Below are positions 390 to 52,648 of a stretch of 55,818 nt of DNA, in pieces (within the stretch, counting starts at the first letter, position 1; the number at the start of each line of letters is the position of its first letter). Location: positions 1 through 55,818 of IMG/VR virus record IMGVR_UViG_3300028822_000225. One strand, given 5' to 3'. Under the pieces are notes generated by a model. That model was not told the origin of the DNA. It saw only the letters and a program-made list of their open reading frames with translations, and made no database searches. The position numbers and the translations under genes are program-made. The stretch is from a virus. Lineage: Duplodnaviria; Caudoviricetes.

Positions 390-950
390 ATGAGAACATT
401 TGTGGTTTTAGGTGTTCCTCGTGGGGGAACAAGTATGATTGCTGGTTTACTTAGAATTTTCGGTATTCATATGGGAGATTATGTTGATGATACTAAACAT
501 GAGGCTCTTGAATTTGCTGGTTTAACTGTTGATGAGTGTATTGATTTGATTGAAATTAGGAATATTCGTGACGAAGATTGGGGTTGGAAGGAACCATGGA
601 TAGGTCTAATACTTAATGATATACATAATTCTTTTGCTAATCCACACTATATTTATATTTCAAGAGACTTAATTGCTTGTTTGAATAGTGATTTGAGACA
701 TAATGATACTTTTAAAGAAAGAGAGAACGCAGAGTCGTTTATCTGGAATAGGAACCTACACTTAGTTAATGAGATGAATAAGGTACTTAGATATGCAGAT
801 AAGAAACTACTATTGAGTTACGAGGAAAGTTTAAAAAGACCAGAAAATTTAATAGAACAACTTGAAACCTTTATTGGTAAAAAACTCTCTAAAGATAAGA
901 GGGAACAAGCAATTAAATTCATAAAACCAGGATATAGGAAAATAAAATGA
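390..950 (+). CDS. Sulfotransferase-family protein (P-loop, PAPS-binding)
   Basis: VVLGVPRGGTS 5'-PSB loop, WGWKEP, ISRD..ACLNS, and LSYEESLKRPE motifs. Confidence 0.8.
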   Translation: MRTFVVLGVPRGGTSMIAGLLRIFGIHMGDYVDDTKHEALEFAGLTVDECIDLIEIRNIRDEDWGWKEPWIGLILNDIHNSFANPHYIYISRDLIACLNSDLRHNDTFKERENAESFIWNRNLHLVNEMNKVLRYADKKLLLSYEESLKRPENLIEQLETFIGKKLSKDKREQAIKFIKPGYRKIK

Positions 951-1098
951 AAAAAGCTAAATTTGGATGTGAACCATTATATAGGGAGGGAGACAAGTTT
1001 AGGGTTGTTAAAAAAAACAAAGACCCCAACCTTATGCCTATAGAAGCCCTACATTTGAGAACTAAACAAGTTTATGGATTTGAGGAGGATGAATTAGA

Positions 1099-1287
1099 AT
1101 GAATGAAAATAACTACTCAGGAGGAATTGGATTTTTAGGACTGCTTGGATTGTTATTCATAGGACTTAAATTAACTGGATACATTACATGGAGTTGGTGG
1201 TATGTGCTTATGCCTTTGTGGGGACCAATAGCGTTAGTAATATTTGTATTAATGATATTAATTGGGATAAATTTAATAAGGAGTTAA
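1099..1287 (+). CDS. Small 2-TM viral membrane protein
   Basis: LFIGLKLTGYITWSWWYVLMPLW resembles a widespread phage membrane family (Fragile-X-F-like TM). GGAGG lies upstream. Confidence 0.7.
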   Translation: MNENNYSGGIGFLGLLGLLFIGLKLTGYITWSWWYVLMPLWGPIALVIFVLMILIGINLIRS

Positions 1288-1288
1288 A

Positions 1289-1684
1289 ATGAGAAAAGGA
1301 AATTTCGTAAATTTAAATGATGCAATTCCACCTGAGGACCAAAAATTAAGAGATAGCGTTCAAAAAACTAAACACACGGAGGAAAAAGTTATGCAGACGA
1401 AATCAAGATACGAAGTAATCTCAGACCTTGAACAGCAAAAGAGAAATCTTATCAAGGAAAGAGATGGTCTTAAAGACGCTTTGAAAGAGAAGGAAAAGGA
1501 TATTAAGGACCTTGAGAGAAAGAAAAGCGATACTGTCTTGTATTTAGATAGACAGATTGAGGATGCCAAAGACGACCTTGAAAACTTCCAGAAAACACTA
1601 GAAGAAAGAAAGGAAACAATTAGTGAACTTATCAAGGGTGTTGATGAGAGTCTTCAAAGATTTAATGAAATGCAGCAGAAATAG
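1289..1684 (+). CDS. Coiled-coil protein
   Basis: Charged heptad-rich sequence. An alternative start at about 1391 has GGAGG upstream. Confidence 0.65.
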   Translation: MRKGNFVNLNDAIPPEDQKLRDSVQKTKHTEEKVMQTKSRYEVISDLEQQKRNLIKERDGLKDALKEKEKDIKDLERKKSDTVLYLDRQIEDAKDDLENFQKTLEERKETISELIKGVDESLQRFNEMQQK

Positions 1685-1727
1685 TTGCATTTCTTTTTAT
1701 ACTCTTCAGAAAACAAAATCAAAAATT

Positions 1728-1842
1728 TGACCCCCACCTGAGGAGATGCCCACTGTCGGGCTACCTTAATAAGATGGATAAGGTATAGTGCCTTAAACAG
1801 GTACATTTATATATCATAAATCGTTTCAAAGTGGGGGATTCA
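1728..1842 (+). ncRNA. Candidate structured RNA (multibranch junction)
   Basis: GC-rich intergenic island. Outer stem CCCCCAC/GTGGGGG encloses four hairpins: GCCC/GGGC, TACCTTA/TAAGGTA, GTGCCT/AGGTAC and ATTTAT/ATAAAT. Confidence 0.55.
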
Positions 1843-1852
1843 TACTCAAAAA

Positions 1853-2077
1853 ATGGACGAAGAATTTGCACAAGAACAGTTTAGAAAGTATTTGAAGAAA
1901 GTAGAAGAAATTTCGGATTTGAAAAATTATATTAAAAAATTAAAGAATACCATAACTGTTTTAGAAGAAGAAAACACAGAATTGAGGAAAGAAAATAAAA
2001 AAATGGGTAAAGAGATAGAAGAATGGATGAAAATATCTCCAAATTGCCATGCTGACCCAGATAGAAAAAATGAATAA
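1853..2077 (+). CDS. Small coiled-coil protein
   Basis: ORF coupled to the next gene. Confidence 0.6.
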   Translation: MDEEFAQEQFRKYLKKVEEISDLKNYIKKLKNTITVLEEENTELRKENKKMGKEIEEWMKISPNCHADPDRKNE

Positions 2078-2330
2078 AAAAGATAAAGAAAAAATAAAAA
2101 GACTAGCAGAAATCCTATATTTTGAAAAAGGAGTGGAGGAGATTAAATTTCTCCCCTTTCTTAGAAATGGCTATCCTAACTGGGTTAGTAAGTTATTTTA
2201 TAATCCAAAAAGAGATTATGTTGGTAAGTGGATAGAAGAAAAGGGAGAAGAAATTAAGGATATTATTTTTGCCTTAGCTGTTGAGGGAGATGTTGATTCT
2301 ATTTTAAGGGAGTTGGAAAAAAATGAGTGA
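2070..2330 (+). CDS. Hypothetical protein
   Basis: Track ORF 2049..2330. The ATG at 2070 overlapping the upstream gene end is the likelier start. Confidence 0.55.
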   Translation: MNKKDKEKIKRLAEILYFEKGVEEIKFLPFLRNGYPNWVSKLFYNPKRDYVGKWIEEKGEEIKDIIFALAVEGDVDSILRELEKNE

Positions 2331-3336
2331 AATTTTTGGACAAGACAAGATATTTAGTCATGTAGATAAAATACACAATTGGCTAGAAGGAGACCCAAAT
2401 ACATTAATCACTATGGAGATGGACCCAACAGATAATTGTAATAACAATTGTCCAGGGTGTGCAGGGGGGAGAACAGGCCAATCATCCTTAACATTGGAAG
2501 AAATGACTGGTTACATTGACCAGATGAAAGATATTGATGTTAGAGGTCTTATTTTTTCAGGGGGAGGTGAACCCTTAGTTAATCCATCTACGCATAAGGC
2601 TATTTCTCATGCTAGAATGTCTGGATTGGATGTTGGTTTTATAACTAATGGTCTTGCTTTAAAAGAGGATTTATATGATACTCTCCTAAATGATTGTACA
2701 TGGATTAGATTTAGTTTAGATGCTGGAACCCCTGAGATGTATAAACAAACTCATGGGATGAATGAAAGAGCCTTTAATAAGGTTCTTGAAAACATTAGAG
2801 GGATTTCTAGTCGTAAAAAAGAAATTGGTTCTGATTGTACATTGGGAGTTGGTTATCTTGCAGGTAAGGAAACTTTGGGTGATATGGTTAATTTCGCAAG
2901 AATAAGCAGCGAATTAGGTGTAGACTATGCACAATTTAGACCCTTTCATAGAGACCGTACTTCAATAGCTCCAGAACTTGCTAAGTCAAAGAAATATGAA
3001 AGAGATGATTTCAAAGTACTTCATTCTGCACAGAAATATAAACATTTTTTAGAGGAAAACCCCAGACCATATAATGAATGTCATGGAGTTAATTTTGCTT
3101 CAGTAATCCAAGCTGATTCAAATTTGACTACTTGCTGTCACATGAGGGGGAAACCTAAGTATTACTTAGGCAATCTAAAAGAAAATACACTTAGGGAAAT
3201 ATGGGAATCGGATAAGAAAAAAGAAGTTTTTGAAAATATTGATTTTAATGATTGTGTTCCTTACTGTAGATGCGATTCGTTCAATAGGGTACTTTATGAT
3301 ATTAAACAAGAAAAGACACATAAGAATTTTTTATAA
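2323..3336 (+). CDS. Radical SAM protein with SPASM/twitch domain
   Basis: CNNNCPGC (CX3CX2C), SGGGEP, ITNG and SLDAG motifs. C-terminal C...TCC...LGNL....L.EIW...C..C.C. Confidence 0.93.
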   Translation: MSEIFGQDKIFSHVDKIHNWLEGDPNTLITMEMDPTDNCNNNCPGCAGGRTGQSSLTLEEMTGYIDQMKDIDVRGLIFSGGGEPLVNPSTHKAISHARMSGLDVGFITNGLALKEDLYDTLLNDCTWIRFSLDAGTPEMYKQTHGMNERAFNKVLENIRGISSRKKEIGSDCTLGVGYLAGKETLGDMVNFARISSELGVDYAQFRPFHRDRTSIAPELAKSKKYERDDFKVLHSAQKYKHFLEENPRPYNECHGVNFASVIQADSNLTTCCHMRGKPKYYLGNLKENTLREIWESDKKKEVFENIDFNDCVPYCRCDSFNRVLYDIKQEKTHKNFL

Positions 3337-3337
3337 A

Positions 3338-3907
3338 ATGATTTACTTTATACATATACCAAGAACAGGCGGTGGAAGTTTAACCAAAGCCATTGAAGAT
3401 AATAATGCGAACATTAAGAGAATAGGGCATAACACTTATAATCCAAAATGGAAATCCGCAAATGATATTTTGGAAGAAGAACAAGGGGCAGAGTTTTTTA
3501 CAATCCTTAGAAATCCTTATGATAGGATAATTTCTGTTTATAAGGCATTAAAGTTTAATCCGGGTACTAGTGATATGGAATTTTATAAAAAATATATGAA
3601 AAAATATAATAATATTAATGAATTTGTGGACGATTTGGATTTCTTAATTAAAAATACAAACAATCCCCACATTAAACCACAAACTTTCTTCATCCCAATG
3701 GAAGAATCGATAGGAATATTTTTTTATGAGAAGATGGAAATGCTTAAAGAATTTTTAGATATTTTTGATAGTAATATATTTAATTCTTTTAAAAGTGCTA
3801 AAAGGCATTTATCTCCTAAGAAAGATATTCAATTAAATGAGGAATCTAAAAAAAAGATAGCAAAGATTTATGAAATAGATTTTGCTTTCGGGGGTTATCA
3901 AAAATGA
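3338..3907 (+). CDS. Sulfotransferase family 2 protein
   Basis: FIHIPRTGGGS, FTILRNPYDRIISVY, HIKPQ and YEIDF..GGY motifs. Start moved to the in-frame ATG at 3338, just after the radical SAM stop. Confidence 0.88.
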   Translation: MIYFIHIPRTGGGSLTKAIEDNNANIKRIGHNTYNPKWKSANDILEEEQGAEFFTILRNPYDRIISVYKALKFNPGTSDMEFYKKYMKKYNNINEFVDDLDFLIKNTNNPHIKPQTFFIPMEESIGIFFYEKMEMLKEFLDIFDSNIFNSFKSAKRHLSPKKDIQLNEESKKKIAKIYEIDFAFGGYQK

Positions 3908-4908
3908 AATTTAAAATAATTGGAGCTGGGTTGACAGGGTTAACAATAGCTAGAATTATGCAAGATGCAGGACATAATGTTACTGTATTTGAGAAAGGTG
4001 AAAATATTGGTGGGCTTTGTAGAGATGTTAAAGAGAGAAAGTCAGGGGTTTGGTATAATCCACACGGAGTTCACATTATGCATTTCAGAGAATCAGATAA
4101 AGAGGCACTCTCATTCATTAAAAAACATGTTAGATTGATTAGTTACAATCACAGAGTCCTGATGCTTGGTAAGGGAACTTTTGGATATTTCCCTCCTAAT
4201 GAATTGTCTCAAGAATTATATAATATTACTAATCCCAGAGATTCTTTCTTTAAGGAATTCATAAAATCTTATTCTAAAAAAATGTGGGGATTAAAATGGA
4301 ATATAATAAAGAAGAAAATTAGTAATAGATTTGCTTTCCAGAACAAGAGAAATTATTCTTTCTTCGGAAGTGAAAAAGTCTTTGTACCAGAAAATTATAC
4401 TAAATTATTTGAAAACCTTTCTAAAGGAATTAAGATAAAATTTGGGAATAGGGTTGATGTTACAGACTACAAATTAGATAAAGAGAAATCTATTTATATC
4501 ATAACATCTCCAATTGATGAATTCTTTTTAAATTGTTATGGTAAATTGAGTTGGAGAGGTATAGAAATTGGAAATCATTTAATCAAAACGAATGAAAATA
4601 TTTTACCTGAAGCAGTAGTAAATACAAATAAACATCCTAAACTACTTAGAATGGTTGAATATAACCAATTACCTCATAATAGGAAAAGTACAGGATATAG
4701 TATAATCTCTTTAGAATATCCTTCTAAAAAAGAGAATCTTTGTTATCCTATCCCAACTAAAAGTAATGAACGAAAGTTAAATAAATACTTAGAGCTTTCT
4801 AAAAGTTATGAAGATATTTACTTTGTTGGGAGGCTTGGGGAATACAAGTATAAAAACATGAATGAAGCGATTGCAGATGCTATTAAATTTTGTGAGAAAT
4901 TCAAATGA
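3904..4908 (+). CDS. glf: UDP-galactopyranose mutase-like flavoprotein
   Basis: GAGLTG FAD motif, IGGLCRD, HGVHI.H, PIDEFF, YP.P and GRLGEYKYKNMNEAI. Confidence 0.85.
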   Translation: MKFKIIGAGLTGLTIARIMQDAGHNVTVFEKGENIGGLCRDVKERKSGVWYNPHGVHIMHFRESDKEALSFIKKHVRLISYNHRVLMLGKGTFGYFPPNELSQELYNITNPRDSFFKEFIKSYSKKMWGLKWNIIKKKISNRFAFQNKRNYSFFGSEKVFVPENYTKLFENLSKGIKIKFGNRVDVTDYKLDKEKSIYIITSPIDEFFLNCYGKLSWRGIEIGNHLIKTNENILPEAVVNTNKHPKLLRMVEYNQLPHNRKSTGYSIISLEYPSKKENLCYPIPTKSNERKLNKYLELSKSYEDIYFVGRLGEYKYKNMNEAIADAIKFCEKFK

Positions 4909-4926
4909 GAACTAATATTCAGGGGA

Positions 4927-5008
4927 GTGTGCAGGAAGTAAAAACCTTGAAAAATCTTTCTAAGAAAGTTTCATTTATCGTTGGTGTATTGTTTCCTTCC
5001 TCGCACAC
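4927..5008. repeat. Bulged stem-loop element, copy A
   Basis: GTGTGCAGGAAG (4927-4938) pairs with CTTCCT-C-GCACAC (4996-5008) around a 57-nt loop. The arms are identical to copy B. Confidence 0.85.
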
Positions 5009-5019
5009 ATTGATTTAAA

Positions 5020-5145
5020 ATGAAAGATAAAAAAAGAAAAGAATTACTTGAATGGAAATATCATAAAGCATTACAACTTAAACAATATGATAGAGCAAAG
5101 GTGTATTTAAAATTATTAAAAGAATTGGAGGAAAAAGAAGAATGA
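5020..5145 (+). CDS. Small 41-aa protein ending in the ELEEKEE junction motif
   Basis: Translated by hand: MKDKKRKELLEWKYHKALQLKQYDRAKVYLKLLKELEEKEE. The stop overlaps the next ATG. Confidence 0.55.
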   Translation: MKDKKRKELLEWKYHKALQLKQYDRAKVYLKLLKELEEKEE

Positions 5146-5405
5146 GTAAAATAAAAACTATAAAAGATTTGAAAGAGGATATTATGTATTTTGATTTTAG
5201 AAAAGAAACATTTAAACACCCTCATTATAAAAGAAAAGATGAAGAAGAATTTAAAGAAAGATTTACAGCGGGAACGATGAATATAGTTTCAGTAGAAGAA
5301 CTAAAAGAAGAAGCAATTAAGTGGGTTAAGGAGTTTAGACATCAGGGGAATTGGGAAGAGAAGTTCATTCGTTTCTTTAATCTCACAGGGGAGGATTTGG
5401 AATGA
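5142..5405 (+). CDS. Paralogue family member (KTLKD...EAIKW...FFN.T.EDL)
   Basis: Shares N- and C-terminal motifs with the ORFs at 9704, 49775 and 52340. Confidence 0.75.
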   Translation: MSKIKTIKDLKEDIMYFDFRKETFKHPHYKRKDEEEFKERFTAGTMNIVSVEELKEEAIKWVKEFRHQGNWEEKFIRFFNLTGEDLE

Positions 5406-6739
5406 AAACACTTGTAGTTGCTAAATATAATGAGGATACCAAATGGACAAGAGATTTTGAAAATGTAGAGATAATTCATAAGGGAGTGGATTTACCTAAT
5501 TTTGGAAGAGAACAACATACTTTCCTTTGGTATATTGTGAATAATTATGAGGAACTTAATGGATATTATTTCTTTGTTCAAGGAAATCCTTTTGACCATT
5601 GTGAGGATTTAAAGGAAGTTTATGAAACTCGTTTAGAAAAGAAATGGACACCTTTAGGGAAGAAACTGGGAAGTAAAAAAGGGGAACGTATTTGTGAATT
5701 GGATGGGAGACCACATCATGGAACAGGAAATTTAAAAATTAAAGAATTCTTATCAGATATTGGGATAAATTATAATCGTAATTTGATTAAATTCTATGCT
5801 GGAGGGCAATATTCTATTCATTCTAGTGAGATAAAAAAGAAACCGAAAGAATATTATGAAAAAGTTCTTAATTTATTTGATAAATATGGAGAAAAGGCAG
5901 GATATATCTTAGAAAGAGTTATGCAATTTGTATTTAATTGGAAGGAATTTGAACATTATGTTGTTACTAGATTTGCTTACCCAACCAATTATCCTTATTT
6001 TGAAGAGAGAAAAAGGATTTTCAAATTATTTTTAATTGAATGTTTAAAAGAACAGACTAATAAAAACTTTAAATTTATAATAATTGGAAACGATAAAACA
6101 CATGAATTAGAAGAAGAACTAAAAGGAATTAATTATCAAATCTTACATGAGGGCTTGGGATTTGTTAAAGAAAAACCTTTAGAAGTTTTCGACCTTCAAT
6201 GTAATTATCTTATAACTACAAGATTTGATGATGATGATTTAGTTCACCCAGAATTTGTGGGAAAGATTCAAGAATTATTCAAAAAATTAGATTATCTTTC
6301 TCCCTATGTAATAGATTTTAAGGGTTTTAGATATGATATGAGAAATCGTAAGGCCTATAAAGTTACTGAGTATGACCCTAGAACTGGTTGGGGAACTTCT
6401 CCTTTCTTAACTTTTGTTGAAAAAGCAGATATAGAAAACATAAAGACTTGTGTCTACCTTAAACATGGGCATATGGGACATAATTTCCATTTACACTATG
6501 TGGACCAAGAATATTGGATTCAGGTTGCACACCATCTTAACATTTCAAACAACAAATTGCCTCGCTTATTTAAATATCCTGAAGTTAAGGAAAGACTCTA
6601 TTTTTCTAAATATATAAAATTCTTACTTGAAAATTTTAATTTAGTTGATTATAGTGATGTTGTTATCACTAATGAATACTTGAAAAAGATTAAAAAAGAG
6701 AAGGATTATTTAGATAAAGAAATTACTAAAGAAAAATGA
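5402..6739 (+). CDS. DUF3431-like domain fused to a putative GT-A (rhamnosyltransferase-like) domain
   Basis: N-terminal LVVAKYNED..W, PNFGRE.HTFL.YIV.NY and FFVQGNPFDH. C-terminal HYVVTRF, CLKEQTNKNF and TTRFDDDD. Confidence 0.75.
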   Translation: MKTLVVAKYNEDTKWTRDFENVEIIHKGVDLPNFGREQHTFLWYIVNNYEELNGYYFFVQGNPFDHCEDLKEVYETRLEKKWTPLGKKLGSKKGERICELDGRPHHGTGNLKIKEFLSDIGINYNRNLIKFYAGGQYSIHSSEIKKKPKEYYEKVLNLFDKYGEKAGYILERVMQFVFNWKEFEHYVVTRFAYPTNYPYFEERKRIFKLFLIECLKEQTNKNFKFIIIGNDKTHELEEELKGINYQILHEGLGFVKEKPLEVFDLQCNYLITTRFDDDDLVHPEFVGKIQELFKKLDYLSPYVIDFKGFRYDMRNRKAYKVTEYDPRTGWGTSPFLTFVEKADIENIKTCVYLKHGHMGHNFHLHYVDQEYWIQVAHHLNISNNKLPRLFKYPEVKERLYFSKYIKFLLENFNLVDYSDVVITNEYLKKIKKEKDYLDKEITKEK

Positions 6740-7608
6740 TAAGTGTAATTACTTGTGTTTGGAACAGAGAGAATGAAAGGATACAAAACTGTATAGATTA
6801 TTTAAAAGACCAAGTAGACGAGATAATAGTTGTCGATTATGGAAGTGATGAACCTATAAAAATTAATAATGCTAAAATAATTAGGTATGATAAAAATCCT
6901 GTATTTAATAAATCTCATGCACTAAATTTAGGAATTAAGGCTGCCAAAAATAAATTTATTATGTGTGTAGATTGTGATATGATTATTCCCGAAGATGTGG
7001 TTTCTGATATAAAAAACACTTTGATAGACGATGCAACTTTTATAATAAATACAAATGTTAATAGGATAAATAAGGGGGACATTGGTAATTGGGATAAGGC
7101 TTTCCCTTGGCATAAGGAAAATATTGGTATGAATCGTGCGAGGTCCTCTGCAAATGGGGGGATGCAAGTATTTTCAAAAGAATGGGTAGAAGAAATTCAT
7201 GGATATGATGAACAATTCATACTATTGGGATGTATGGATAATGATATGGTGAATAGGGCTGTTTTCAGTGAAATGAGAATAATTGATGTTAATATGCCTA
7301 TATATCATCAAGAACATGAAAAGAAGAAGGGAGATGTTTTTGGTAAAGAAAATGAGGAGAAAGTTAACTTTATCACAAACGAGAAACTGCATTACTACAT
7401 AGAAAAAACAAATAATATGATTGTAAAAAATCCAGGTCCTTGGGGAGAAGATGAACCAAATCAAGATAAATTCATAAGTTTATGGACTAATTGGGATGAA
7501 ACATTTCCTGCATTACAAGACAAACGTGAAAAAATGCTTCAAGAAATTAAAAATTTTATAATTGAAAAAAAAATACCTATAAAAAAAATGGATGTGAAAT
7601 GGAAATAA
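6736..7608 (+). CDS. Glycosyltransferase family 2
   Basis: ISVI, EIIVVDYGSD, FNKSHALNLGI, DCD (DxD motif), GYDEQF..GCMDND and HQEH. Confidence 0.9.
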   Translation: MISVITCVWNRENERIQNCIDYLKDQVDEIIVVDYGSDEPIKINNAKIIRYDKNPVFNKSHALNLGIKAAKNKFIMCVDCDMIIPEDVVSDIKNTLIDDATFIINTNVNRINKGDIGNWDKAFPWHKENIGMNRARSSANGGMQVFSKEWVEEIHGYDEQFILLGCMDNDMVNRAVFSEMRIIDVNMPIYHQEHEKKKGDVFGKENEEKVNFITNEKLHYYIEKTNNMIVKNPGPWGEDEPNQDKFISLWTNWDETFPALQDKREKMLQEIKNFIIEKKIPIKKMDVKWK

Positions 7609-7862
7609 AAAAGAGAAAATCAACCTATACTCTGGGGGAAAAGGTAAAATTTTACATAGCTCTTAAATTGAATAAAAACCCTGAATATTGTTGGATGAAT
7701 TTGGTTTTATGGGTATTAGGTTATAGAAGTTTTTGGAGTTTGTTTTTTAAAAATCACCCTGAAAATGATTATAAAGACCAATCTTGCAGAGAAGATAATA
7801 TTTATTGTCCTTATGCTTATTGTGGTAAATGTGAAGAAACAGGGAGGTTTTATAATAAATGA
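7599..7862 (+). CDS. Hypothetical protein with C-terminal cysteines
   Basis: Overlaps both neighbours. Contains C...C..YCGKC. Confidence 0.6.
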   Translation: MEIKKRKSTYTLGEKVKFYIALKLNKNPEYCWMNLVLWVLGYRSFWSLFFKNHPENDYKDQSCREDNIYCPYAYCGKCEETGRFYNK

Positions 7863-8518
7863 AAAAGAAAATCCTTATAGCAATCATAAGTAATAGAAGT
7901 GCTTGGTCTAAACATTTTTCTATGAGTTTGGTTAATTTAATCCATGAAACAAGAATGAAACACAACATTGAATGGATTAATGTTTCTAGTTGTGATGTTA
8001 ATTATATGAGAAATCGTGCATGTCTTATTGCTCAGGCTAAAGGGAATGAGGCTCGGGAATGGAATTATGATTATATTGTTATGTTAGATGATGACCACAT
8101 TTATCCTGAAGATTTCATTAATAAATTTGTGGATTATGATTTACCTGTAGTCACCGGATGCACTAGTCAAAGAACCCCCCCATACAAACAGACTCAATAT
8201 AAACAAATAAAAGGGATTGGGATGAAAGATGAAGAAAATATTGTTAATCCTAAAGAAACTGAGGGGTTAGTTCAAATAGATGCTAGTGGGCCTGTAGGGA
8301 TGTGTATTAAGACAGAAGTCCTTGAAAAAATGAAATATCCTTATTTCGAACAGATTAATCTAAATAATAGTCCAAGTATCCGTGGTGGAGATATTCAATT
8401 TTGTCAACAATTAAAAGAATTAGAAATACTTCTTTATTTGGATAGTTCAGTATCATTTCCCCATTGTGCGGGAGATACATTATATGCAGATAGAGGGCAA
8501 GTTCATTATCACCCATAA
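7859..8518 (+). CDS. GT-A fold glycosyltransferase-like protein
   Basis: MRN..C, YIVMLDDD, VVTG, G.GM.IK.EV, YPYF and GGDIQFC motifs. Confidence 0.8.
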   Translation: MKKKILIAIISNRSAWSKHFSMSLVNLIHETRMKHNIEWINVSSCDVNYMRNRACLIAQAKGNEAREWNYDYIVMLDDDHIYPEDFINKFVDYDLPVVTGCTSQRTPPYKQTQYKQIKGIGMKDEENIVNPKETEGLVQIDASGPVGMCIKTEVLEKMKYPYFEQINLNNSPSIRGGDIQFCQQLKELEILLYLDSSVSFPHCAGDTLYADRGQVHYHP

Positions 8519-11963: not shown

Positions 11964-12560
11964 ATGGAAGACAAATGGTTAGTAACTCTCTTTGTTGTGG
12001 CTGGTTTACTTGTTGGTACTTTAATAGGTGCTACAGGATTCTCTCAAACAGAAATTGTAGAGAAAGAAGTTCCGGTTATACAGGAGAAGTTAGTAGAGAA
12101 AGAATGTCCTTCTTGTCCGGAAGTTACTTGTCCAGAGGTAGAAATGCCTGAAGTTGAGAATGCTGATAATGAGCTTCTTAATGAATTCTTAGAAGATGAG
12201 TTTAGTGATGAATATGGTGCTATAGAATCCAATGCAACAATGTATGCAATGGAAGAACTTGAAGATGATGACTATGAAGTAGTCTTAGAATATCTAGAGT
12301 CAATTGTTGATGGTGCTATAGACGAAGATTCTATTGAAGTAGATGAGGAATCTATGGAAATAGATGTGGAAGTTACAAAACTAGGACTTGGAGAAGATGA
12401 GGACAAGAAAGCAATTGTCACTTTCGAACTTGAAGTTGAATACGAACTCGAAGAGGGAGTAAGAGACGAATATGAGAGAGACCTTGTAGTTGAATATGAG
12501 GTATTTTTCGAAGAAGGTGATTTTGATGACGAAGAAGTTACACTTCTTAACATTGCTTAA
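11964..12560 (+). CDS. Very acidic membrane-anchored or exported protein
   Basis: N-terminal TM segment, CP-repeat stalk (CPSCPEVTCPE) and D/E-rich body. Confidence 0.75.
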   Translation: MEDKWLVTLFVVAGLLVGTLIGATGFSQTEIVEKEVPVIQEKLVEKECPSCPEVTCPEVEMPEVENADNELLNEFLEDEFSDEYGAIESNATMYAMEELEDDDYEVVLEYLESIVDGAIDEDSIEVDEESMEIDVEVTKLGLGEDEDKKAIVTFELEVEYELEEGVRDEYERDLVVEYEVFFEEGDFDDEEVTLLNIA

Positions 12561-12569
12561 TTGTTAAAA

Positions 12570-12601
12570 TTATTTTTTATTTTTTTATTTTTTTATTTCT
12601 T
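12570..12601 (+). terminator. Oligo-T tract, probable archaeal-type terminator
   Basis: T-runs interrupted by single A, directly after the 12560 stop. Confidence 0.45.
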
Positions 12602-12672
12602 GGGCAGATGGTGAAATGTTATCACGCTTCTTTTGCAAGGAAGAGTTCGGGGTTCAATTCCCCGTCAGTCCA
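12602..12672 (+). tRNA. tRNA-Ala(UGC)
   Basis: Cloverleaf with acceptor GGGCAGA/TCAGTCC (G3:U70, one A-A mismatch), anticodon arm CTTCT-TTTGCAA-GGAAG and T-arm CGGGG-TTCAATT-CCCCG. No encoded CCA. Confidence 0.9.
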
Positions 12673-12675
12673 TAA

Positions 12676-12746
12676 GCCTCAATAGTTTAGTGGAAAAATA
12701 CCTAACTGTCTATCAGGAGTCCTGAGTTCGATTCTCAGTTGAGGCG
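12676..12746 (+). tRNA. tRNA-Asp(GUC)
   Basis: Acceptor GCCTCAA/TTGAGGC with discriminator G, anticodon loop CTGTCTA and T-arm CTGAG-TTCGATT-CTCAG. No encoded CCA. Confidence 0.85.
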
Positions 12747-15281: not shown

Positions 15282-18200
15282 TAAGTATTATTAGCACATT
15301 GTCTAAAATAAAGATTTGGATTGAATAATCTCCAATTATTATAACTACAATCATAATCTGCCCACATCCAAATATTAGTGGTGTTTAAATATTCTTTGTT
15401 AGAAACTATCTCCTCCCATGATTCATTTAATTGGTATCCATCACTTTTTGAATTTGTAGTACTGATAGTTAAATTTACACAATTAGAGGTGTTTTCTAAA
15501 TAAACACTAAGATTGGAATCTTTCCCTCCATATCCATAATTTGTTATATTTATTATTGGATTAATATCACTCTGTCCATAAGGGGTAACATTATTTTTGC
15601 TAGGAGAATCAGGAACAAATTCTAAAAAATCCACTAAATTAGGAACAAAAGAATAATCCCATCTAGAGTAATAAAAAGTAACATATCTAGTCAAATTAAG
15701 GGAGTTATCATTATTTTGTGCTGTTACTTTTATAGTCTCATTTCCTCCTGCATAATTATAATTTAAATTAGTTATATTAACCGACCCCTCCTGGCTTCTA
15801 AGAGGAATAGTAAAATTAGTAATTCCTTCCCCATAATTATTCAAATAATCTTGAATAAAGGTTGTATTAATAAAAACAGGGTTTGGGTCATAGGTTATAT
15901 TAATCCAATTTATATCTAATTCCCCTGGGGTATCTGTACCTATTTCTAAAGGTATCTTATAAAGATGGGAATATATTTGTGAATCTTCTACAAAAGAAGA
16001 AGATAAATCTGAATTTGTTAAATTAATTATTTTGCTTCCGTTTGATTTTGAAAAAATTCCCGAAATATTATAATCTGATATTCCATCATTACCAAAATCA
16101 AATGTCAAATTAGAAAGATTATTTTTTTCTAATTGGATAGATATTTTTGATATTTCAATAGAATTTGTTTTATCTTTTGGTTCAGAAATATTGAAATCTA
16201 ATCTCCACCTAAGATTTTTACCTGGATTGGAAAAAGAGTGGGCAGAATTTAAGGATACTCCCTCCCAATTTTGACCATCGTCAGCACTCAGGTATGGAGA
16301 AAGTGTTTCATTTTCCGGAAAGAAACCACTTAGAGTAATATTATCTATATTTTGTATATTAGAATTTGGGTTATAAATAGAATTAGAAATTACTGAACTA
16401 TTTTCTCTTTCTGAAAGAGTCCTATTAATATAATCTACTAATAAAGTATTATCTACATAAGGGTCATCTGAACCTTTTGTTATTGATATATAGAAATTTA
16501 AAAAATTAACAATAGAGGCAGAAACATAAGTTACATTATTGTCGTAAACAATTTCTTTAGAATATCCATCAGTATTGCTAGAATTTTCCGTACCATCTAT
16601 TGTAACCTTAAAATGAGAAGTATTAAATTGTTCTATATGGAAAAAAAGTTTGGCTGAAGCCTCACTAGACCCACTAGGTAAATCAGAAGGAGGGATATTC
16701 ATCTCCCATATCTTTTCCCCTCCAAACTGAATAAAATTATCCCCCCCAACTCCAAAATCATTCGACATACTACCAAAAAAATCGACTTCTAAGGGAAAAT
16801 AAATGTCTTCAGATTGAACCCCTGAGATATTATAGGTATAAACAGGGAGGGTAGCACTCGCCAAATCGTCCCCATTATCACTAAAAATTCTTGATTTTAA
16901 ATTCCCTCCTGTTTCTGAAGTACAAACAATTTCTGATGAAGAGGAAACCGGACAAGAATATGTCCATAAACTAGAATTAATAGCTCCATCATTAAAATCA
17001 TCAAAAGTATAATTCTTTTTATTGGATTTTTTTGGTAGGATTTTTCCAATAAGAGCTAGGTGGGCATCAGTTTGAGACTCATCTATATCACTATAATTGG
17101 AAAAAGAGTTAGTATAATTAAAACCAAATTTTTCTGAAGAAATATTAAGAGAAATATTTTTTATATTAGCATTATCATCTAAATAAAAATATATTAATGA
17201 ATCCCCTTTTGAAGAAAAACCAATTGTCTTATTAGTTTCTCCAGTAGTAGTTTTATTGAGATAAATATTTTTATTCCTTAATACTCCTTCATAAATTCTG
17301 TCTCTTGTAGTTGTATTACAACCATAAAATAAAACATTTTTTGCATCACCAGACATATTAAAACTTAAATTAACAACTTCATCATACCTATGAGATGTAA
17401 TGGAAAGATTTTCATCATCAACATGTATCCCTCCAAAAACAAAATTCTTATAAGAACTTCCGTCAGAAAATAACTTTTTGTTAAAATAATTGATTGTTAA
17501 ATTAATTAAATTATCCCAAAAAGAACAAGTATAATTTTTCCCATAATCTGGATGGTCTATACTAAAACAAATATTGTCAAGAGTATTTGTTCCGTTTAAT
17601 TCAATATCAGTACCCAATTCTGCAGAGACATTATCATACTCTCTCTGAATGGAAAAATTTATAATCTCTTCACCATATTTTCTAACTCCCGCATTTTCCT
17701 TATTCCCTGCCTTATCAATAATAGATACATTCCAATAATACATTGTTCCTCCTGAAAGGCCTGTCCAATTAATTGTTCTTTTTCCATCACTAGAACTTGT
17801 TGAATTAACAATTCCTTCTCTAGTATATAAATTAAAAACTATTTCATCTTCTTTTGTTTCAGTTATACTAACATTTACAAATATCCAATCTTTATTATTA
17901 AAATTTGCAGAAGTATTGGAATCATCACTATTTGGGGTGTAAGAAATAATAGGGGATATACTGTCTATATAAGTTATCCTACTTTCTGAAGAATTGTTTC
18001 TCCCAGACAAATCAAACACTGTAAAATTAAATGTATAATTTCCATTAGGGACATCATAAAAAATTATTGAATTGTTATCATTTTCTGTTTTCATATTGTA
18101 AGAGGTAATATTATATTCTCCTGTTTCATTATAAAGACGAAAAGTTATATTTTTTGTATTATTTTCATTAACAATTGCATCTATTGTTATATTTGGAGTC

Positions 18201-24272: not shown

Positions 24273-24332
24273 CCGAGTTTATTTTGCTCTCCTGAGCTAA
24301 TAATTTATAGTTTTATAACTTTATAAAAGTTG

Positions 24333-24926
24333 TTATACTTTATTGCATCGCACTTCATGGCATTGAGTAGCTCCCTGAAGTCTATGTGTTATAACATCTT
24401 TTATTTCATAATTATTCTCATCAAATTTAATCTTATTTGCTACAGATAGTCCCGTTACTGTAGACTTGGCGAAAAAGGTTTTATCTCCTGGACTATATCT
24501 TCCTTCACGATTAAATTCTTCATCTCCATTAATATCATTATGAACTACTGTAATTGTTGAACTACTTGTTGTTTGAGACATATCTCCCCATGCAGAATAA
24601 GTAGTTTCACTAGCAGTAATCAATATTACATCTTCACCATATCTATCAATTTGTCTGTCTACTATAGTAACACTTACACTCTCAGCAGTTGTAGTATAAA
24701 TAATTGAGATATTCATATCATCATAAATCTTCCGTGTAAAAGTAATTGTGCTGCTAGAATCATTATGGGTTACATTATAGTCGCTTGTACTTACTAAAAG
24801 ACCACTTACATAAACTTCAAAATTCTCGCTTTCAGTGAGTTCAGTATTATTCAAAGTTAGTACTCTATTCGTCTCTCCTGAATTTCCTGTACATTCACTT
24901 CCGGTTCTATCTTCTTGTGTAGCCAT
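24333..24926 (-). CDS. Head closure (stopper) protein with an extra N-terminal domain
   Basis: C-terminal YGEDV.L...DKTFF...KIKFD...YEIKDV. N-terminal VYVSG...DY.V...ITF beta domain. Confidence 0.65.
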   Translation of the reverse strand: MATQEDRTGSECTGNSGETNRVLTLNNTELTESENFEVYVSGLLVSTSDYNVTHNDSSSTITFTRKIYDDMNISIIYTTTAESVSVTIVDRQIDRYGEDVILITASETTYSAWGDMSQTTSSSTITVVHNDINGDEEFNREGRYSPGDKTFFAKSTVTGLSVANKIKFDENNYEIKDVITHRLQGATQCHEVRCNKV

Positions 24927-34473: not shown

Positions 34474-35543
34474 CTTAATTTCGCTTGACTCAACAGCATT
34501 TCGGCGAACTCTGCATCTCCTTTTGAATAACCTTTTGGAATCTTCACTGTGTTATCTACGACAGACATAGATTTCACATCTTTCTTTTTAGAAAGATTTT
34601 CAGAAGACTCTTCTTCCTTCTTCTCTTCTTTTGGTTCCTCTTGAGATTCAGAAAGTTTAGCTATTTTTTCTCCAAGAGACTTGAGTTCTTTTATAACGAG
34701 ATTTAATTTAGAACTTAATTCTTCTGATTTGTCTTCAGATTCTTTCCCTGATTCTTCTGTTGTTTCTTCCTTAGATTCCTCTTCAGAATTTTCAACAGTT
34801 TCTTCTTTGGGTTCCTCTTTAGACTCTTCAGAAGGTTGTTCTATAACTTCATCTTTTTTCTCGTCTTCCATCTTCTCTGTTAAATCTTGACCCCCTTTCA
34901 TCTCTGTTGATTCTGATTCATCTTCCATATCCTCTTTTTTCTTTTTCTTCTTTTTTTCCCAATATTTTTTCTCATTTGTTTCTCCCCCAATTGATTCTCC
35001 TGAAACTCCTCCAGAACTTGTTACAGATAATTCCATTGGTTTTACTCTCATAGTTTTTTCTTCTTTTAATTTTTCAGATAGGTTGATATAAGCATTTTTA
35101 CATGCAGGGTCATAGACTACAGAAAAGTTAGCAAATTTTTTAATATTGAAATTTCCATCATCATCTTCTACACCAAGAACTCTGGCAGAAACACCTAATT
35201 TAGCACCACCTTTTACTAATTTCAATGCAAGGTCTTTATCCCAAATTTCCAAATCTCCCACAAGTTCCCCGCTGTCAGTCACCTCTAAATTAAGAACATT
35301 CCCTAACCAATTAGTTGCTCTTTCTTCGTGTTCATAAATAAGTGCATAATTTTTCTTATCGCTCCAATCTGTTAATTCAAAACCCTCTTTAATACTATTA
35401 GCAGTAAAGTTTAATCCATTCCATTTTCCTGGGGTTAATAATGTTTTTCCTTTTAGAATTACAGGTAATTTCAACTCGTTTTGTTCAACTTCATATTCTT
35501 GCTTTGCTAAAGTCATTTCTTGCATAAAAAAATTAAGTTTCAC
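34470..35543 (-). CDS. Prohead protease fused to an acidic scaffold
   Basis: PGKWNG, IYEH, GVS and SVV.DPAC protease motifs, then an E/K/S-rich C-terminal half. The start may be a downstream ATG. Confidence 0.8.
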   Translation of the reverse strand: MKLNFFMQEMTLAKQEYEVEQNELKLPVILKGKTLLTPGKWNGLNFTANSIKEGFELTDWSDKKNYALIYEHEERATNWLGNVLNLEVTDSGELVGDLEIWDKDLALKLVKGGAKLGVSARVLGVEDDDGNFNIKKFANFSVVYDPACKNAYINLSEKLKEEKTMRVKPMELSVTSSGGVSGESIGGETNEKKYWEKKKKKKKEDMEDESESTEMKGGQDLTEKMEDEKKDEVIEQPSEESKEEPKEETVENSEEESKEETTEESGKESEDKSEELSSKLNLVIKELKSLGEKIAKLSESQEEPKEEKKEEESSENLSKKKDVKSMSVVDNTVKIPKGYSKGDAEFAEMLLSQAKLR

Positions 35544-35598
35544 TCCTTTATAAAATTTGTTATAGTTTTATAACTTTATAATATTATAACAAATCCCC

Positions 35599-36963: not shown

Positions 36964-37241
36964 TATTTAAACCTTATGGACCTAATCCATTTAACTAATT
37001 TAGTTTCTAGAAGATATATTGTAAACCCGTATCCTACAAAAGAGTACCATGTGAAAGGATTTCTGAAAATAACAAAAATAGCTAAACTAGACATCCCTCC
37101 AAATAAAATAACTTGCCCAATTATGTTAAAAATAACTTTCCTATCTTGTTCATCTAATTTAAAAATTTTAATATTTTTTAAGAAATTAGTGGATTTTTTC
37201 CATTTTTTCTTTAATTTTTTCCAAATTTCATTAAATTTCAT
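36963..37241 (-). CDS. 2-TM membrane protein between terminase and portal
   Basis: Two hydrophobic helices. A TATA box lies about 22 nt upstream. Confidence 0.65.
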   Translation of the reverse strand: MKFNEIWKKLKKKWKKSTNFLKNIKIFKLDEQDRKVIFNIIGQVILFGGMSSLAIFVIFRNPFTWYSFVGYGFTIYLLETKLVKWIRSIRFK

Positions 37242-37280
37242 AAAAAATAATAGAATTATAACTTTATAAAAGTTGTTATA

Positions 37281-41244: not shown

Positions 41245-41298
41245 TTATAAAACTATAAGGTTATAACATTATAACTTTATAATATTATAAGTTTATAA
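41245..41298. repeat. Seven TTATAA hexamers at 8-bp period
   Basis: TTATAA-aa-CTATAA-gg-TTATAA-ca-TTATAA-ct-TTATAA-ta-TTATAA-gt-TTATAA. Confidence 0.9.
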
Positions 41299-41613
41299 CA
41301 CAGCTGGAATAAAAATAAATTTCATTTCAAAAAACCCACAGAGTAAAGACCATAAGGTTATTGTGGGTTTTATATTTTCCACTGGAAATAAAGGTATATG
41401 TAAAAAGTCAATTTGCCCACAGGTAAAAACTCTAAATACATATGAGATTGCCTTATAAAAAAAATAATCTCCACAAGAAATAAAGGTATAGGTAATAAAT
41501 AAATACATATGAGTTTGCCTTTGTAAAGAAAAAAAAGAGGGTTTTTATAACTCCACCCCGAGCAACACAAAAATAAGAAAAATAAATATTCAAATAAAAA
41601 AAAATATAATAAA

Positions 41614-41913: not shown

Positions 41914-42502
41914 GTTTATGGTATTTGTTTATAAAATGGTTAATGTTATTTTAAAAAATATTGATAAAATTAAAAGTTATAATGTTATAGGATTATATTA
42001 TTATAATGTTATAATTTTATTTAAACTCGTATGTAGTTACAAATATTTAAATAGTAGTGGTGCTTTAATATAATATGAAACAAGAACAGATAATAAATAA
42101 AATGATTAATTCAGAAATAGAGTTTGATCTTAAAATGAACTATGTGCTTATAGTTTATTATAGGAATGGTTTAAGGTTTAAATATGTTAATAAGGAGTGT
42201 TTAAAATGATGATTGAAAAAAGGTTTAAATCTTATAATGATTATTTAAATTTTTTGTATTCTTTTAAAAGGATAGAGGTATTAAGTAGATTTGATATAAA
42301 TAAAAAAGAGTATGTAGTCCTTTATGAGGAGGGTTTAAAATGAGTTATAAAATAATAAATGATACAGAAGCATTAATGACTAAAATAGATGATTTAATAA
42401 TTGATATTGAAGATTTGAGATATAATAAAAACTATTCTGAAGTTGCTTGTAATGTTAAAGGGTTTATATTTGATATTTTAAGAGAAATGAAAGGGGGTTT
42501 AA

Positions 42503-42925
42503 GTGAGAATGATATATGAGGAAATAGACGAAAGTCTTTTTATAAGTCGTTTTGAGGATTTTAAAAGGGTTGAAACAGATGAGAAGGGTGGAAACTTTAC
42601 TTATAAGGGTTTAAGATATTTATTTAATTATCTTGATGATTTAAGTGAAGACACAGACGAAAATATACAGCTTGATGTAATTGCTTTATGTTGTGATTTT
42701 TCAGAATATAAAGACATTAAAGAGTATTTAAGGGATTATGGAAACCAACACGAGGTCCTTAAAAAAGAAATTGAAAACCTTAAAGATACTTTTGAAGAGA
42801 AAACAAAAAAAGAAAACCTCTTAAAAGACCTTTACAGCAGGTTAGAAGAAGAAATAAACGAGAAAACAACACTTATAAAGTTTTCAGACGATTTGAACGA
42901 GGGCTTTATAATTGGGAGTTATTAA
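42503..42925 (+). CDS. Conserved phage early protein
   Basis: F...R..NFTY.GL..LF.YL...LDVIALCCDF.E recalls a widespread phage hypothetical family. Confidence 0.7.
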   Translation: MRMIYEEIDESLFISRFEDFKRVETDEKGGNFTYKGLRYLFNYLDDLSEDTDENIQLDVIALCCDFSEYKDIKEYLRDYGNQHEVLKKEIENLKDTFEEKTKKENLLKDLYSRLEEEINEKTTLIKFSDDLNEGFIIGSY

Positions 42926-42972: not shown

Positions 42973-43026
42973 TCTTTTATCCTAAGACATAAAACAAGGA
43001 TAGAATTAAACAAGGAGTTTAAAAAA

Positions 43027-49646: not shown

Positions 49647-49778
49647 ATGGTAATGAAGATAGTTTGTCTTGATTGTGGGGAAGAATTCTTAGAGGATAAT
49701 GTCAAAACTCTAAAAATTAAATTCGAAGCACACAAAAAAGAACACGCTAAAAGAAACCAGGAGATGAAAAGAAAATGA
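49647..49778 (+). CDS. 43-aa C2H2 zinc-finger protein not in the ORF track
   Basis: MVMKIVCLDCGEEF...FEAHKKEH. TTTATAAA at 49619-49626 upstream. The stop overlaps the ATG at 49775. Confidence 0.7.
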   Translation: MVMKIVCLDCGEEFLEDNVKTLKIKFEAHKKEHAKRNQEMKRK

Positions 49779-51665: not shown

Positions 51666-51929
51666 ATGAATGAAGCAATAATAAACCATATAATAAGCAT
51701 TATAACAGTAACATTATCAATTATCTTATTACTTACATCTATACTTGTTTTAGGTATACAAGACAATAAAAAAACAGATTTAGAAAATAAATTAGAGAAA
51801 AAACAAGAGATTATTAATGAACTTTGTAAGACATTTCAAGAATATAAACCTGACGAAGATTTTACTAGTAGAGCAATCTCTGAAAAAGAAGTAAAATATC
51901 TTTATTTATGTAATCAAAATGAAAGATAA
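51666..51929 (+). CDS. N-terminal TM protein
   Basis: Hydrophobic N-terminus followed by a coiled coil. Confidence 0.6.
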   Translation: MNEAIINHIISIITVTLSIILLLTSILVLGIQDNKKTDLENKLEKKQEIINELCKTFQEYKPDEDFTSRAISEKEVKYLYLCNQNER

Positions 51930-52194
51930 AATCAAAGAAAAGTTAGAGAAAGGTTTAGATTTACTTAAACATGTAGAAGATTATGATTTTGACGTCTTTA
52001 GTGAGAATGCTGAACTTTTGGAATATACACACTTTCAAGGAAGATTAAAACAACACGAGGAAACAAAAAAAGCAGAAAGAGAGAGATTTTTAAGATTGAT
52101 AGAACGACACGAGTTTGAACACGGGGATTTTCAAGGACTAATTATAAGTTCTGTAGAATTATTAAAAAAAGAATTGGAGGAAAAAGAAGAATGA
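51919..52194 (+). CDS. MKDKIKE...EETKKAERER paralogue
   Basis: Shares DNA blocks with the ORF segments at 50341 and 53547. Confidence 0.7.
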   Translation: MKDKIKEKLEKGLDLLKHVEDYDFDVFSENAELLEYTHFQGRLKQHEETKKAERERFLRLIERHEFEHGDFQGLIISSVELLKKELEEKEE

Positions 52195-52216
52195 AAAGAG
52201 ATAATACTCAAAGGGA

Positions 52217-52299
52217 GTGTGCAGGAAGTAAATACTTTGAGAGCAATAATTCTAATACCAGAGCTTGTTTTATTGTTTTTGTGCTACTTCCTCGCACAC
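52217..52299. repeat. Bulged stem-loop element, copy B
   Basis: GTGTGCAGGAAG(TA) pairs with (TA)CTTCCT-C-GCACAC. 58 nt lie between the core arms. Confidence 0.85.
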
Positions 52300-52339
52300 A
52301 ATAATTTAAAATGAAAACACTTAAAGAGATAAAGGAAAA

Positions 52340-52648
52340 ATGAAAGAACTTAAAACATTAAAAGATATTGAATTTTTTGATGACCATGATAACCATATAG
52401 CAAAGGAATATAATGACAGTGTTAAGAATGATTTGAAAGCCGAAGCTGTGAAGTGGATTTATAAATTTGATGAAGACCCTTATTATATGGAGCAGGAAAA
52501 TGGAGAGATAATGAAATGGATTATGTATTTTTTTAATATAACAAATGAAGAATTGGAGGAAAAAGAAGATGATTGTGATAAAGGAAAAGAAAAAGGAGAT
52601 GACATAAGAATCTGTGGATATAAAATATTGGAGGAAAAAGAAGAATGA
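52340..52648 (+). CDS. KTLKD paralogue with read-through extension
   Basis: MKELKTLKDI...LKAEAVKWI...FFNITNEELEEKE. Confidence 0.75.
   Translation: MKELKTLKDIEFFDDHDNHIAKEYNDSVKNDLKAEAVKWIYKFDEDPYYMEQENGEIMKWIMYFFNITNEELEEKEDDCDKGKEKGDDIRICGYKILEEKEE

Follow-up and report, generated by a model that had tools for sequence, protein, structure and literature searches.

A twice-occurring bulged hairpin in a tailed-virus genome as a candidate split ribosome-binding site

The coat-protein operators of phages MS2 and PP7 are translational operator hairpins that carry a bulged base. The gp43 operator of phage T4 is another phage translational operator hairpin, and the same account describes two T4 genes, 38 and 25, at which a hairpin between the Shine-Dalgarno (SD) sequence and the AUG reduces the spacing from 22 to 5 nucleotides (nt) and from 27 to 11 nt, respectively, the split site of gene 25 being located at the 26-25 junction (PMC3014915). 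T4-type phages also possess promoter-early stem-loops (PeSLs), which are described as repeated, short, conserved stem-loop cassettes between small genes (PMC2839356), while integron attC sites are given an R' core 5'-RYYYAAC-3' and an R'' core 5'-GTTRRRY-3' at the hairpin base (PMC5027507). Here we compare with these systems a bulged hairpin found twice in IMG/VR virus record IMGVR_UViG_3300028822_000225, a complete record of a tailed virus (Duplodnaviria; Caudoviricetes) whose 55,818 bases were analysed as one stretch, called the window below. Copy 1 spans 4927-5008 and copy 2 spans 52217-52299, both on the + strand and both upstream of a gene of the small-protein family KTLKD. We tentatively read this element as a cis-acting + strand mRNA hairpin that may bridge a split ribosome-binding site or gate translational coupling.

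Structure, conservation and relatives of the hairpin

Two sequence blocks recur with the element, namely the 20-mer GGGAGTGTGCAGGAAGTAAA, present in the window at 4923-4942 and 52213-52232 only, and the 14-mer CTTCCTCGCACACA, present at 4996-5009 and 52287-52300 only, with no further matches in the window at 3 and 2 mismatches, respectively (shuffle expectation 0.00 and 0.10). The stems pair G4927-G4938 with C4996-C5008 and G52217-G52228 with C52287-C52299, giving 12 base pairs (bp) each in two 6-bp halves parted by a 1-nt bulge alone, and the bulge is the same single C in both (5002 in copy 1, 52293 in copy 2). Copy 1 consists of the 5' arm GTGTGCAGGAAG (4927..4938), a 57-nt loop (4939..4995) and the 3' arm CTTCCT-C-GCACAC (4996..5008), and copy 2 of its 5' arm (52217..52228), a 58-nt loop (52229..52286) and its 3' arm (52287..52299). 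The original prediction, made from the sequence alone, had described two bulged-stem copies with identical arms followed by the same sequence, and both descriptions hold: 34 of 34 arm bases are identical, there are zero changes between the copies in 26 paired bases and the bulge, and ATTTAAAATGAAA stands directly after each copy. The conserved 20-nt block reaches past the stem (GGGA and TAAA). Stems of this class (at least 11 bp, at least 5 G/C, loop of 20-110 nt) number four in the whole window, two of them being the hairpin copies. The other two, at 2149-2249 (13 bp with a mismatch, 73-nt loop) and 16840-16914 (11 bp with a bulge, 52-nt loop), lie inside open reading frames (ORFs).

The loops had been described as unrelated, a view that did not survive alignment: 39 of 62 columns are identical between copy 1 and copy 2 (z = 3.9, a score reached in 0 of 2000 shuffles), making them diverged homologues, with the 16 nt after the 5' arm better conserved than the remaining loop. 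The leader TAATAYTCA...GGGA is homologous between copies, as is the tail flank, and the KTLKD genes beside the copies share 37-42% protein identity. Taken together, the loops and the KTLKD paralogues form the background against which the arms stand out, and the copies appear to be an old duplication whose arms were kept far above that background divergence. The idea that the loops are simply a decayed duplication, which had been set out as counter-evidence to the original prediction, is therefore borne out for the loops, which do align, and not for the arms.

Each hairpin lies wholly inside a 37-codon mini-ORF (4905..5018 and 52191..52304, + strand) that is ATGA-coupled to the preceding gene, as predicted and as the ORF list and stop map confirm. 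At copy 1 the preceding gene is a UDP-galactopyranose mutase homologue (3904..4908, +; Pfam GLF, E = 2.5e-34) whose TGA overlaps the mini-ORF ATG at 4905..4908, and at copy 2 it is a 91-aa gene (51919..52194, +) ending in ...ELEEKEE-stop. The mini-ORFs read the arms in different frames: the 3' arm, identical in nucleotides, encodes PSSHT in copy 1 but LPRTQ in copy 2 (or YFLAH in copy 2's second open frame, from GTG 52219 to TGA 52314). A 1-nt indel stands just before the G-run, and the loop stretch between the conserved blocks is 53 nt long in one copy and 54 nt in the other. Since the frames differ, the constraint is not on the peptide, and the earlier suggestion that conservation acts on the nucleic acid is supported. 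The bulge would break a duplex half-site, yet a hairpin tolerates it. In every copy the frames cross the hairpin without a stop, as compared with about 0.21 per frame for shuffled loops, which gives modest support to transit by ribosomes.

To find relatives of the element, arm- and leader-anchored patterns and a covariance model (R1) were run over IMG/VR viral contigs, one metagenome-contig scan and DPANN-class genomes. Exact arms gave 0 loci in IMG/VR viral contigs, where the 16-mer 5' arm matched 8 loci, all in unrelated high-G+C phages, the relaxed core pattern 9 and the leader-anchored pattern 12, all again unrelated. Metagenome contigs yielded 36 loci, 34 being chance matches in unrelated DNA and two being real. 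One of these, L032, comes from the same virus and extends across the terminus, with both hairpin copies unchanged; the other, L065, belongs to a different virus and is a fragment of 1,325 bp with a copy-2-type element. L065 matches the window at 94% identity over 178 nt around the element alone, with mosaic flanks; its mini-ORF is intact, two loop bases differ, its tail is of the copy-1 type and the 11-nt spacing described below is kept. The sole arm change seen is its last 3' base, C to T, which turns a G:C pair into G:U. This pair is retained in + strand RNA and would be C/A on the other strand, pointing to + strand RNA, and the + strand is the coding strand of the whole gene block around both copies.

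Run over 21 sources, R1 scored above 100 bits for its own three sequences only. It found no hairpin in 4 related viral records or in 5 genomes with KTLKD relatives, and no equivalent stem stands upstream of the KTLKD genes in relatives L003-L014 and L068-L074. Two weak R1 matches in 151 DPANN-class genomes were rejected, one (L089) having 4 of 12 pairs non-standard and the other (L090) running over the end of a gene of cell-division type (named by eye) in antisense orientation, with a chance expectation of about 0.6 for matches of the latter type. Natural compensatory arm variants were absent across the homologue searches. The contigs of three DNA runs held no variants inside either hairpin, although, these being contigs, this is no evidence of invariance. 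On these sequence comparisons the element appears to be lineage-restricted, occurring in the same virus and one mosaic relative. A 10-11-mer, TGCAGGAAGT(A), was considered as a homologue in two further relatives and rejected, in L003 for its opposite arm order and in L070 because it lies in an apparently coding region (by eye). The L003 match falls within a G+C-rich, ORF-poor stretch (L003 1440-2230) of an otherwise A+T-rich relative, a stretch that has no Rfam match and holds the inverted pair ACTTCCTGCA...110 nt...TGCAGGAAGT, whose 10-mer it has in common with the element arm in opposite order.

We also folded the element as + strand RNA. Copy 1 reached -22.4 kcal/mol (z = -1.7). Copy 2, at -29.7 kcal/mol (z = -4.1), folds as a long irregular helix in which the loop forms an extended A-U/G-U helix and the stem is lengthened to 14 bp (52229-52230 pairing with 52285-52286), an upper helix that is not conserved between copies. 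In contexts of about 200 nt, arm pairing probability was near 1 for copy 1, copy 2 and L065, while the GGGA box, the spacer and the AUG were about 0.9 unpaired in copy 2 and L065.

Junction geometry and a possible split ribosome-binding site

The flanks of the hairpin show a fixed geometry. An SD-like box, GGGAG (4923..4927 at copy 1 and 52213..52217 at copy 2), shares 1 nt with the beginning of the stem in all three sequences, namely both copies and L065, and the last stem base is exactly 11 nt from the next ATG in 3 of 3, through A/U-rich spacers whose letters differ (ATTGATTTAAA, which together with its ATG spans 5009..5022; AATAATTTAAA, which together with its ATG spans 52300..52313). The linear distance from GGGAG to ATG is about 92 nt, of which about 82 nt are looped out by the stem. 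No SD-like motif was found in the -20 to -4 region of ATG 5020 or ATG 52311, whereas 38 of 94 starts in the genome have one within 20 nt upstream and most ATGA-coupled starts carry one (start listing read by eye). By chance, an SD-like motif would end so close, within -1 to +2 nt, at only 2-4% of positions. Because GGGAG or GGAGG also stands 3-12 nt upstream of other starts in the genome (read by eye from the same listing), the effective 11 nt is in range. When the covariance model was aligned with the junction at 3454-3484 of a relative (L004), it matched ACAGGGA joined to TGATTTAAAATGAAAA with all 85 hairpin positions deleted, so that the joined flanks resemble an ordinary SD-spacer-ATG junction of this phage group; by this alignment the hairpin appears to be placed precisely at the point where, in a generic junction, the SD passes into the spacer. 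TGATTTAAAATGAAA recurs at the junctions of several relatives.

The mini-ORF stop, TAA, stands 1 nt before the next ATG at copy 1 and 6 nt before it at copy 2. The ORF after the hairpin has 41 codons in copy 1 (5020..5145, +), 10 in copy 2 (MKTLKEIKEK-stop, 52311..52343, +, from sequence reading) and 26 in L065. The first of these ends in ...ELEEKEE-stop, its last codons forming the GGAGG and ATGA junction for the KTLKD gene, and in the window both are ATGA-coupled to the KTLKD paralogue that had been noted downstream of each copy (5142..5405 and 52340..52648, +).

These observations suggest a mechanism in which the 12-bp G+C-rich stem would loop out about 82 nt at a cistron junction of a polycistronic mRNA, and the folded stem would bring GGGAG close to an AUG lacking its own SD, with an effective spacing of 11 nt. 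We infer that the element acts in RNA, that GGGAG serves as the SD and that translation is affected. Two routes to the AUG are conceivable: 30S subunits could read the bridged ('split') ribosome-binding site on the folded hairpin, or ribosomes translating the mini-ORF could melt the hairpin, terminate 1-6 nt before the AUG and reinitiate. Either would start the downstream small ORF, with the KTLKD gene behind it following via ATGA coupling, and the hairpin would set the balance between the bridged and the termination-reinitiation routes.

Several observations weigh against this account. The SD-hairpin-ATG geometry is not widespread among the starts of this genome, being present, under loose criteria, at 4 of 94 of them as compared with 69 of 2000 random positions, and the argument from geometry was made post hoc on what is a single evolutionary event. 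An SD is also missing at four to five further ATGA-coupled starts (count by eye), so reinitiation alone may suffice. The minimum-free-energy fold of copy 1 pairs part of the G-run (AUUCAGG) with 5048-5056, and the 82-nt insert is five times the length of the T4 precedent. The ORFs that the hairpin would directly serve are short and show no conservation, and the KTLKD gene behind the L065 hairpin is truncated. Only three sequences, near-identical or paralogous, represent the element. Finally, the loops have diverged and yet the arms show no compensatory changes, which should not be expected from a purely structural constraint; the invariant arms point instead to sequence-specific recognition, which the bridging model does not explain.

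Should the bridging model be right, no structured insert known to join the halves of a split ribosome-binding site would come near this one in length, and it would maybe be the first case in a virus of an archaeal (DPANN-type) host; if that archaeal-host case were true, a trick of T-even phages would have evolved independently. It would also provide a compact case of fast-shuffling viral small-gene cassettes that keep their translation wired.

Alternative explanations

The constraint on sequence suggested by unchanged paired bases and bulge beside loops with 39 of 62 identical columns speaks for a hairpin recognised by a protein, either as a translational operator for a phage or host repressor or as a processing or stability site segmenting the polycistronic transcript, a reading that we hold to be somewhat unlikely. 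The invariant arms and bulged C would then be the recognition determinants, single bulged bases being classic protein determinants in phage operator hairpins, and both the extension of the conserved 20-nt block beyond the stem and the long irregular helix of copy 2 are consistent with this. Against it, the 94 scanned ORFs included none recognisable as an RNA-binding protein or RNase, no Rfam family matched (with Rfam 15, the gathering score was reached in the window by two tRNAs only, and nothing at the element had E <= 5), a tRNA scan likewise gave nothing at the element, and the upper helix differs between copies. Protein recognition overlaps the bridging model and does not exclude it, and if the arms were a protein recognition site, the element would mark a regulator of the widespread, uncharacterised KTLKD family.

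Another possibility is that the element is a functionless relic, that is, a decayed duplicate of a small cassette ORF whose arms were kept identical by short-tract gene conversion and pair by chance; its source would be a KTLKD gene start and junction, or the 43-codon ORF type at 49647. That ORF (49647..49778, +), which stands upstream of the third KTLKD paralogue (49775-50131) and has no hairpin, has VKTLK and F-x-A-H (GCACACA) in common with the element in a weak alignment and may be a paralogue of the unit that does not fold. When KTLKD 5' ends were made into a profile, its best non-training match in the window (E = 0.27) fell at 4935-4959 and kept the register of GTG 4929, the frames from GTG 4929 and GTG 52219 reading VQEVKTLKNL and VQEVNTLR where the family starts M-x-x-LKTLKD. 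Copy 2 and L065 end in ...YFLAHNNLK-stop and ...YFLAHIDLK-stop, respectively, as compared with ...FFNLTEEDLK-stop in the family. Short identical tracts are common here, other 23-nt junction repeats being 100% identical at 3 sites, and L065 retains its hairpin despite its truncated KTLKD gene. These homology signals are weak, however (E = 0.27; short motifs), and gene conversion would be expected as one contiguous tract, not as two exactly complementary arm tracts; nor do only four such stems in 55.8 kb, or G+C-rich arms in a genome of 31% G+C, favour chance pairing. We therefore judge a mere relic unlikely. An origin from cassette gene starts and junctions is itself likely from the sequence and would be compatible with present function; such an origin is not evidence against function, because conversion would not select exactly two complementary tracts.

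The element might alternatively be a folded single-stranded DNA or cruciform site, acting in recombination with attC-like logic or as a replication or packaging signal that marks KTLKD cassettes, which we consider quite improbable. A bulged hairpin with a variable loop suits this view, as do the favourable DNA folds of copy 1 (z = -3.3 and -3.4) and the stretch in common with L065, which with its mosaic flanks resembles a conserved island among shuffled cassettes. In common with attC sites, the element has an imperfect inverted repeat that folds into a hairpin and a variable terminal loop, and lies beside small gene cassettes. The attC-like site put forward in the original prediction nevertheless finds no backing: RYYYAAC and GTTRRRY are absent on either strand within 4895-5035 and 52185-52325, and the element has no unpaired central spacer and no cassette array. 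Integrase and recombinase Pfam families at E <= 1e-3 were found in 0 of the 94 scanned ORFs, among which HUH and transposase families were also absent. The element has one bulged C (in the 3' arm) as compared with the two or three extrahelical bases described for attC sites (PMC5027507), and its arms are sequence-invariant where attC sequence is not conserved. Apart from the variable loop and this single extrahelical base, none of the attC-specific features was found, and membership among integron attC sites was rejected. Folded DNA in general is also opposed by the presence of only two copies, which lie 3.4 and 4.8 kb from the terminal repeat, by their homologous flanks, which argue against insertion into unrelated sites, and by the G:U pair of L065, which is a mismatch in - strand DNA. 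In addition, a candidate population variant breaks in the GGAGGAAAAAGAAGAATGA junction repeat and not in the hairpin, a weak signal with a side of 24 nt. In a broader version, which we hold to be similarly improbable, the hairpin would be a folded-nucleic-acid address tag of a virus-borne cassette system, read on single-stranded DNA or RNA by a phage or host enzyme that moves, copies or silences KTLKD cassettes; its logic would be attC-like, unrelated to integrons, and possibly at work in a DPANN-archaeal virus.

It is very improbable, in our estimation, that the locus is a small hydrophobic-peptide gene with its ribosome-binding site locked in a 5'-3' fold, as in type I toxin (hok-like) systems, with AGGAAG of the 5' arm as SD, a UUG 8 nt downstream as start and the CUUCCUC arm as internal anti-SD. 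AGGAAG, 8 nt and TTG do follow one another in both copies (4933-4949 and 52223-52239), conservation over the 16 nt behind the 5' arm exceeds that of the other loop bases, and the product of copy 2 and L065, (M)RAIILIPELVLLFLCYFLAHNNLK, is strongly hydrophobic. The model fits copy 2 and not copy 1, whose product KNLSKKVSFIVGVLFPSSHTLI is not a membrane helix; the frame across the 3' arm is not the same in both copies; the search for an antisense promoter at the copies found none; and SD and start codon are weak, with no family match. The scaffold for a variable guide or antisense RNA, the other proposal of the original prediction, suits an invariant stem with a more variable loop and deserves hardly any credence, since the loops are homologous and not exchanged (z = 3.9), the best loop complementarity in the genome is 12-13 nt (E >= 0.03), neither a promoter nor a terminator is present from which a discrete small RNA could arise, and the element lies inside open, coupled reading frames.

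Some further candidates were set aside. Ribosomal bypass or frameshifting has no matched take-off and landing codons, and the only slippery-like heptamer, AAAGGGA of copy 2, falls in a closed frame and has no counterpart in copy 1 (both by reading). An insertion resembling a miniature inverted-repeat transposable element would account for the inverted repeats, but no target-site duplication is seen at the borders, the copies' flanks are homologous, and no further copies were present in the public collections searched.

Genomic setting and comparison with known systems

The window is bounded by 144-bp direct terminal repeats (1-144 = 55675-55818). In a Pfam scan, portal protein, terminase-like ATPase and tail proteins were located on the - strand from about 13 to 41.5 kb, while a + strand gene block of about 27 kb, containing numerous small ATGA-coupled ORFs, runs from 41.6 kb across the terminus to 12.9 kb. 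tRNA-Ala(TGC) and tRNA-Asp(GTC) are found at the end of this block (12601-12746), and long (T7-8 A)n tracts occur at 12557-12601, just before the tRNAs and near the block end, and at 42919-42978, about 1.3 kb inside the block start. Hairpin copy 1 is in the middle of a virus-borne glycan-modification cluster (390-8518) whose contents include two sulfotransferases, a radical-SAM/SPASM enzyme, the UDP-galactopyranose mutase, a rhamnosyltransferase-like protein and a GT2 glycosyltransferase. An 18-nt tandem repeat (17 overlapping registers, 52724-53173) inside the gene 52645-53541 encodes YdcK-type beta-solenoid repeats. The distance between the hairpin copies is about 148 nt shorter in L032 than in the window, and the alignment of L032 to the window half holding 52724-53173 has 8 gap openings; our guess is that the two differ in 18-nt repeat number.

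A DPANN archaeon is a possible host. TTATAAA or TTTATAA stands exactly 28 nt before the ATG of several genes that have no SD, with starts at 36963(-), 37281(-), 49114(-), 49647(+) and 9383(+). Such motifs could be TATA-box promoters of leaderless mRNAs, as would suit archaeal transcription, which hints at an archaeal host and is no proof. At the hairpin itself, TTTAAAA was rejected as a TATA box, since it lies 35 nt from the next ATG (far more in copy 1) and not at the -28 seen elsewhere. A further repeated motif, TTATAACTTTATAAAAGTTGTTATACT, has its repeats near 24298-24339, 35525-35594, 37241-37282, 41255-41299 and 41976-42027.

KTLKD is a widespread viral small-protein family (M-x-x-LKTLKD ... 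LK-x-EAIKW-x-K ... FFNLT-x-EDLK-stop), with three paralogues in the window (5142-5405, 49775-50131 and 52340-52648) and members also in L003-L014 and L068-L074. It has no Pfam match, and among 9 members PHROG gave 3 weak single-member matches. Its relatives at 7 genome-collection loci carry 3 titles of 'Candidatus Woesearchaeota' metagenome-assembled genomes and 4 bacterial titles. The last KTLKD codons, GAGGATTTAAAATGA, also supply SD and ATGA to the gene that follows. Seven sites hold a 23-nt junction repeat, GAATTGGAGGAAAAAGAAGAATG (5122-5144, 50674-50696, 50999-51021, 52171-52193, 52550-52572, 52625-52647 and 54055-54077), 3 of them identical and 0 expected. The repeat encodes ...ELEEKEE-stop and at once provides the following gene with GGAGG and an ATGA overlap, and it has the look of a recombination-prone seam of small-gene cassettes. 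A contig of one run (X1) joins two of these junction repeats, L032 1469 to 1937 corresponding to window 52184 to 52652 (weak, with depth 6.6 and a side of 24 nt). The join skips 467 nt comprising hairpin copy 2, the 10-codon ORF and the KTLKD gene at 52340, and the contig is possibly a co-occurring variant without the cassette.

Compared with the described systems, the element resembles phage operators in its sequence-invariant stem, its single bulged nucleotide and the nearby start codon. Those operators are about 20 nt long, have loops of 4-8 nt and either contain the SD or AUG or stand directly beside it, whereas the loop here is 57-58 nt. The likeness to PeSLs is that of conserved stem-loop islands among shuffled small non-essential genes in plastic regions (PMC2839356). 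Unlike PeSLs, neither copy of the element is accompanied by a sigma-70-like promoter or a terminator-like U-run (promoter-like sites numbered 0 on the + strand at copy 1, with none overlapping copy 2, and terminator-like sites 0 in 4600-5400 and 51900-52700), the element lies inside open coupled frames and not between transcription units, and the recombinogenic-looking repeat of this genome is the GGAGGAAAAAGAAGAATGA junction and not the hairpin.

By analogy, the element would work most like the split ribosome-binding sites of T4, to which it is unrelated in sequence and whose host setting may differ, the host here being possibly archaeal. In the T4 cases (PMC3014915), an SD directly 5' of a stable hairpin and an AUG at a functional distance 3' of it occur at an intercistronic junction traversed by the upstream frame, within one phage lineage, and the same arrangement is seen here with GGGAG as the candidate SD and with an effective spacing of 11 nt that equals that of gene 25. 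Differences from those sites are the 82-83 nt looped out here as compared with about 16-17 nt, the bulged C, the long and partly structured loop, and the two paralogous copies per genome. A putative SD that abuts the stem, no SD near the AUG, an 11-nt spacing in 3 of 3 sequences and a stem pairing probability near 1 are sequence features that a split ribosome-binding site would show.

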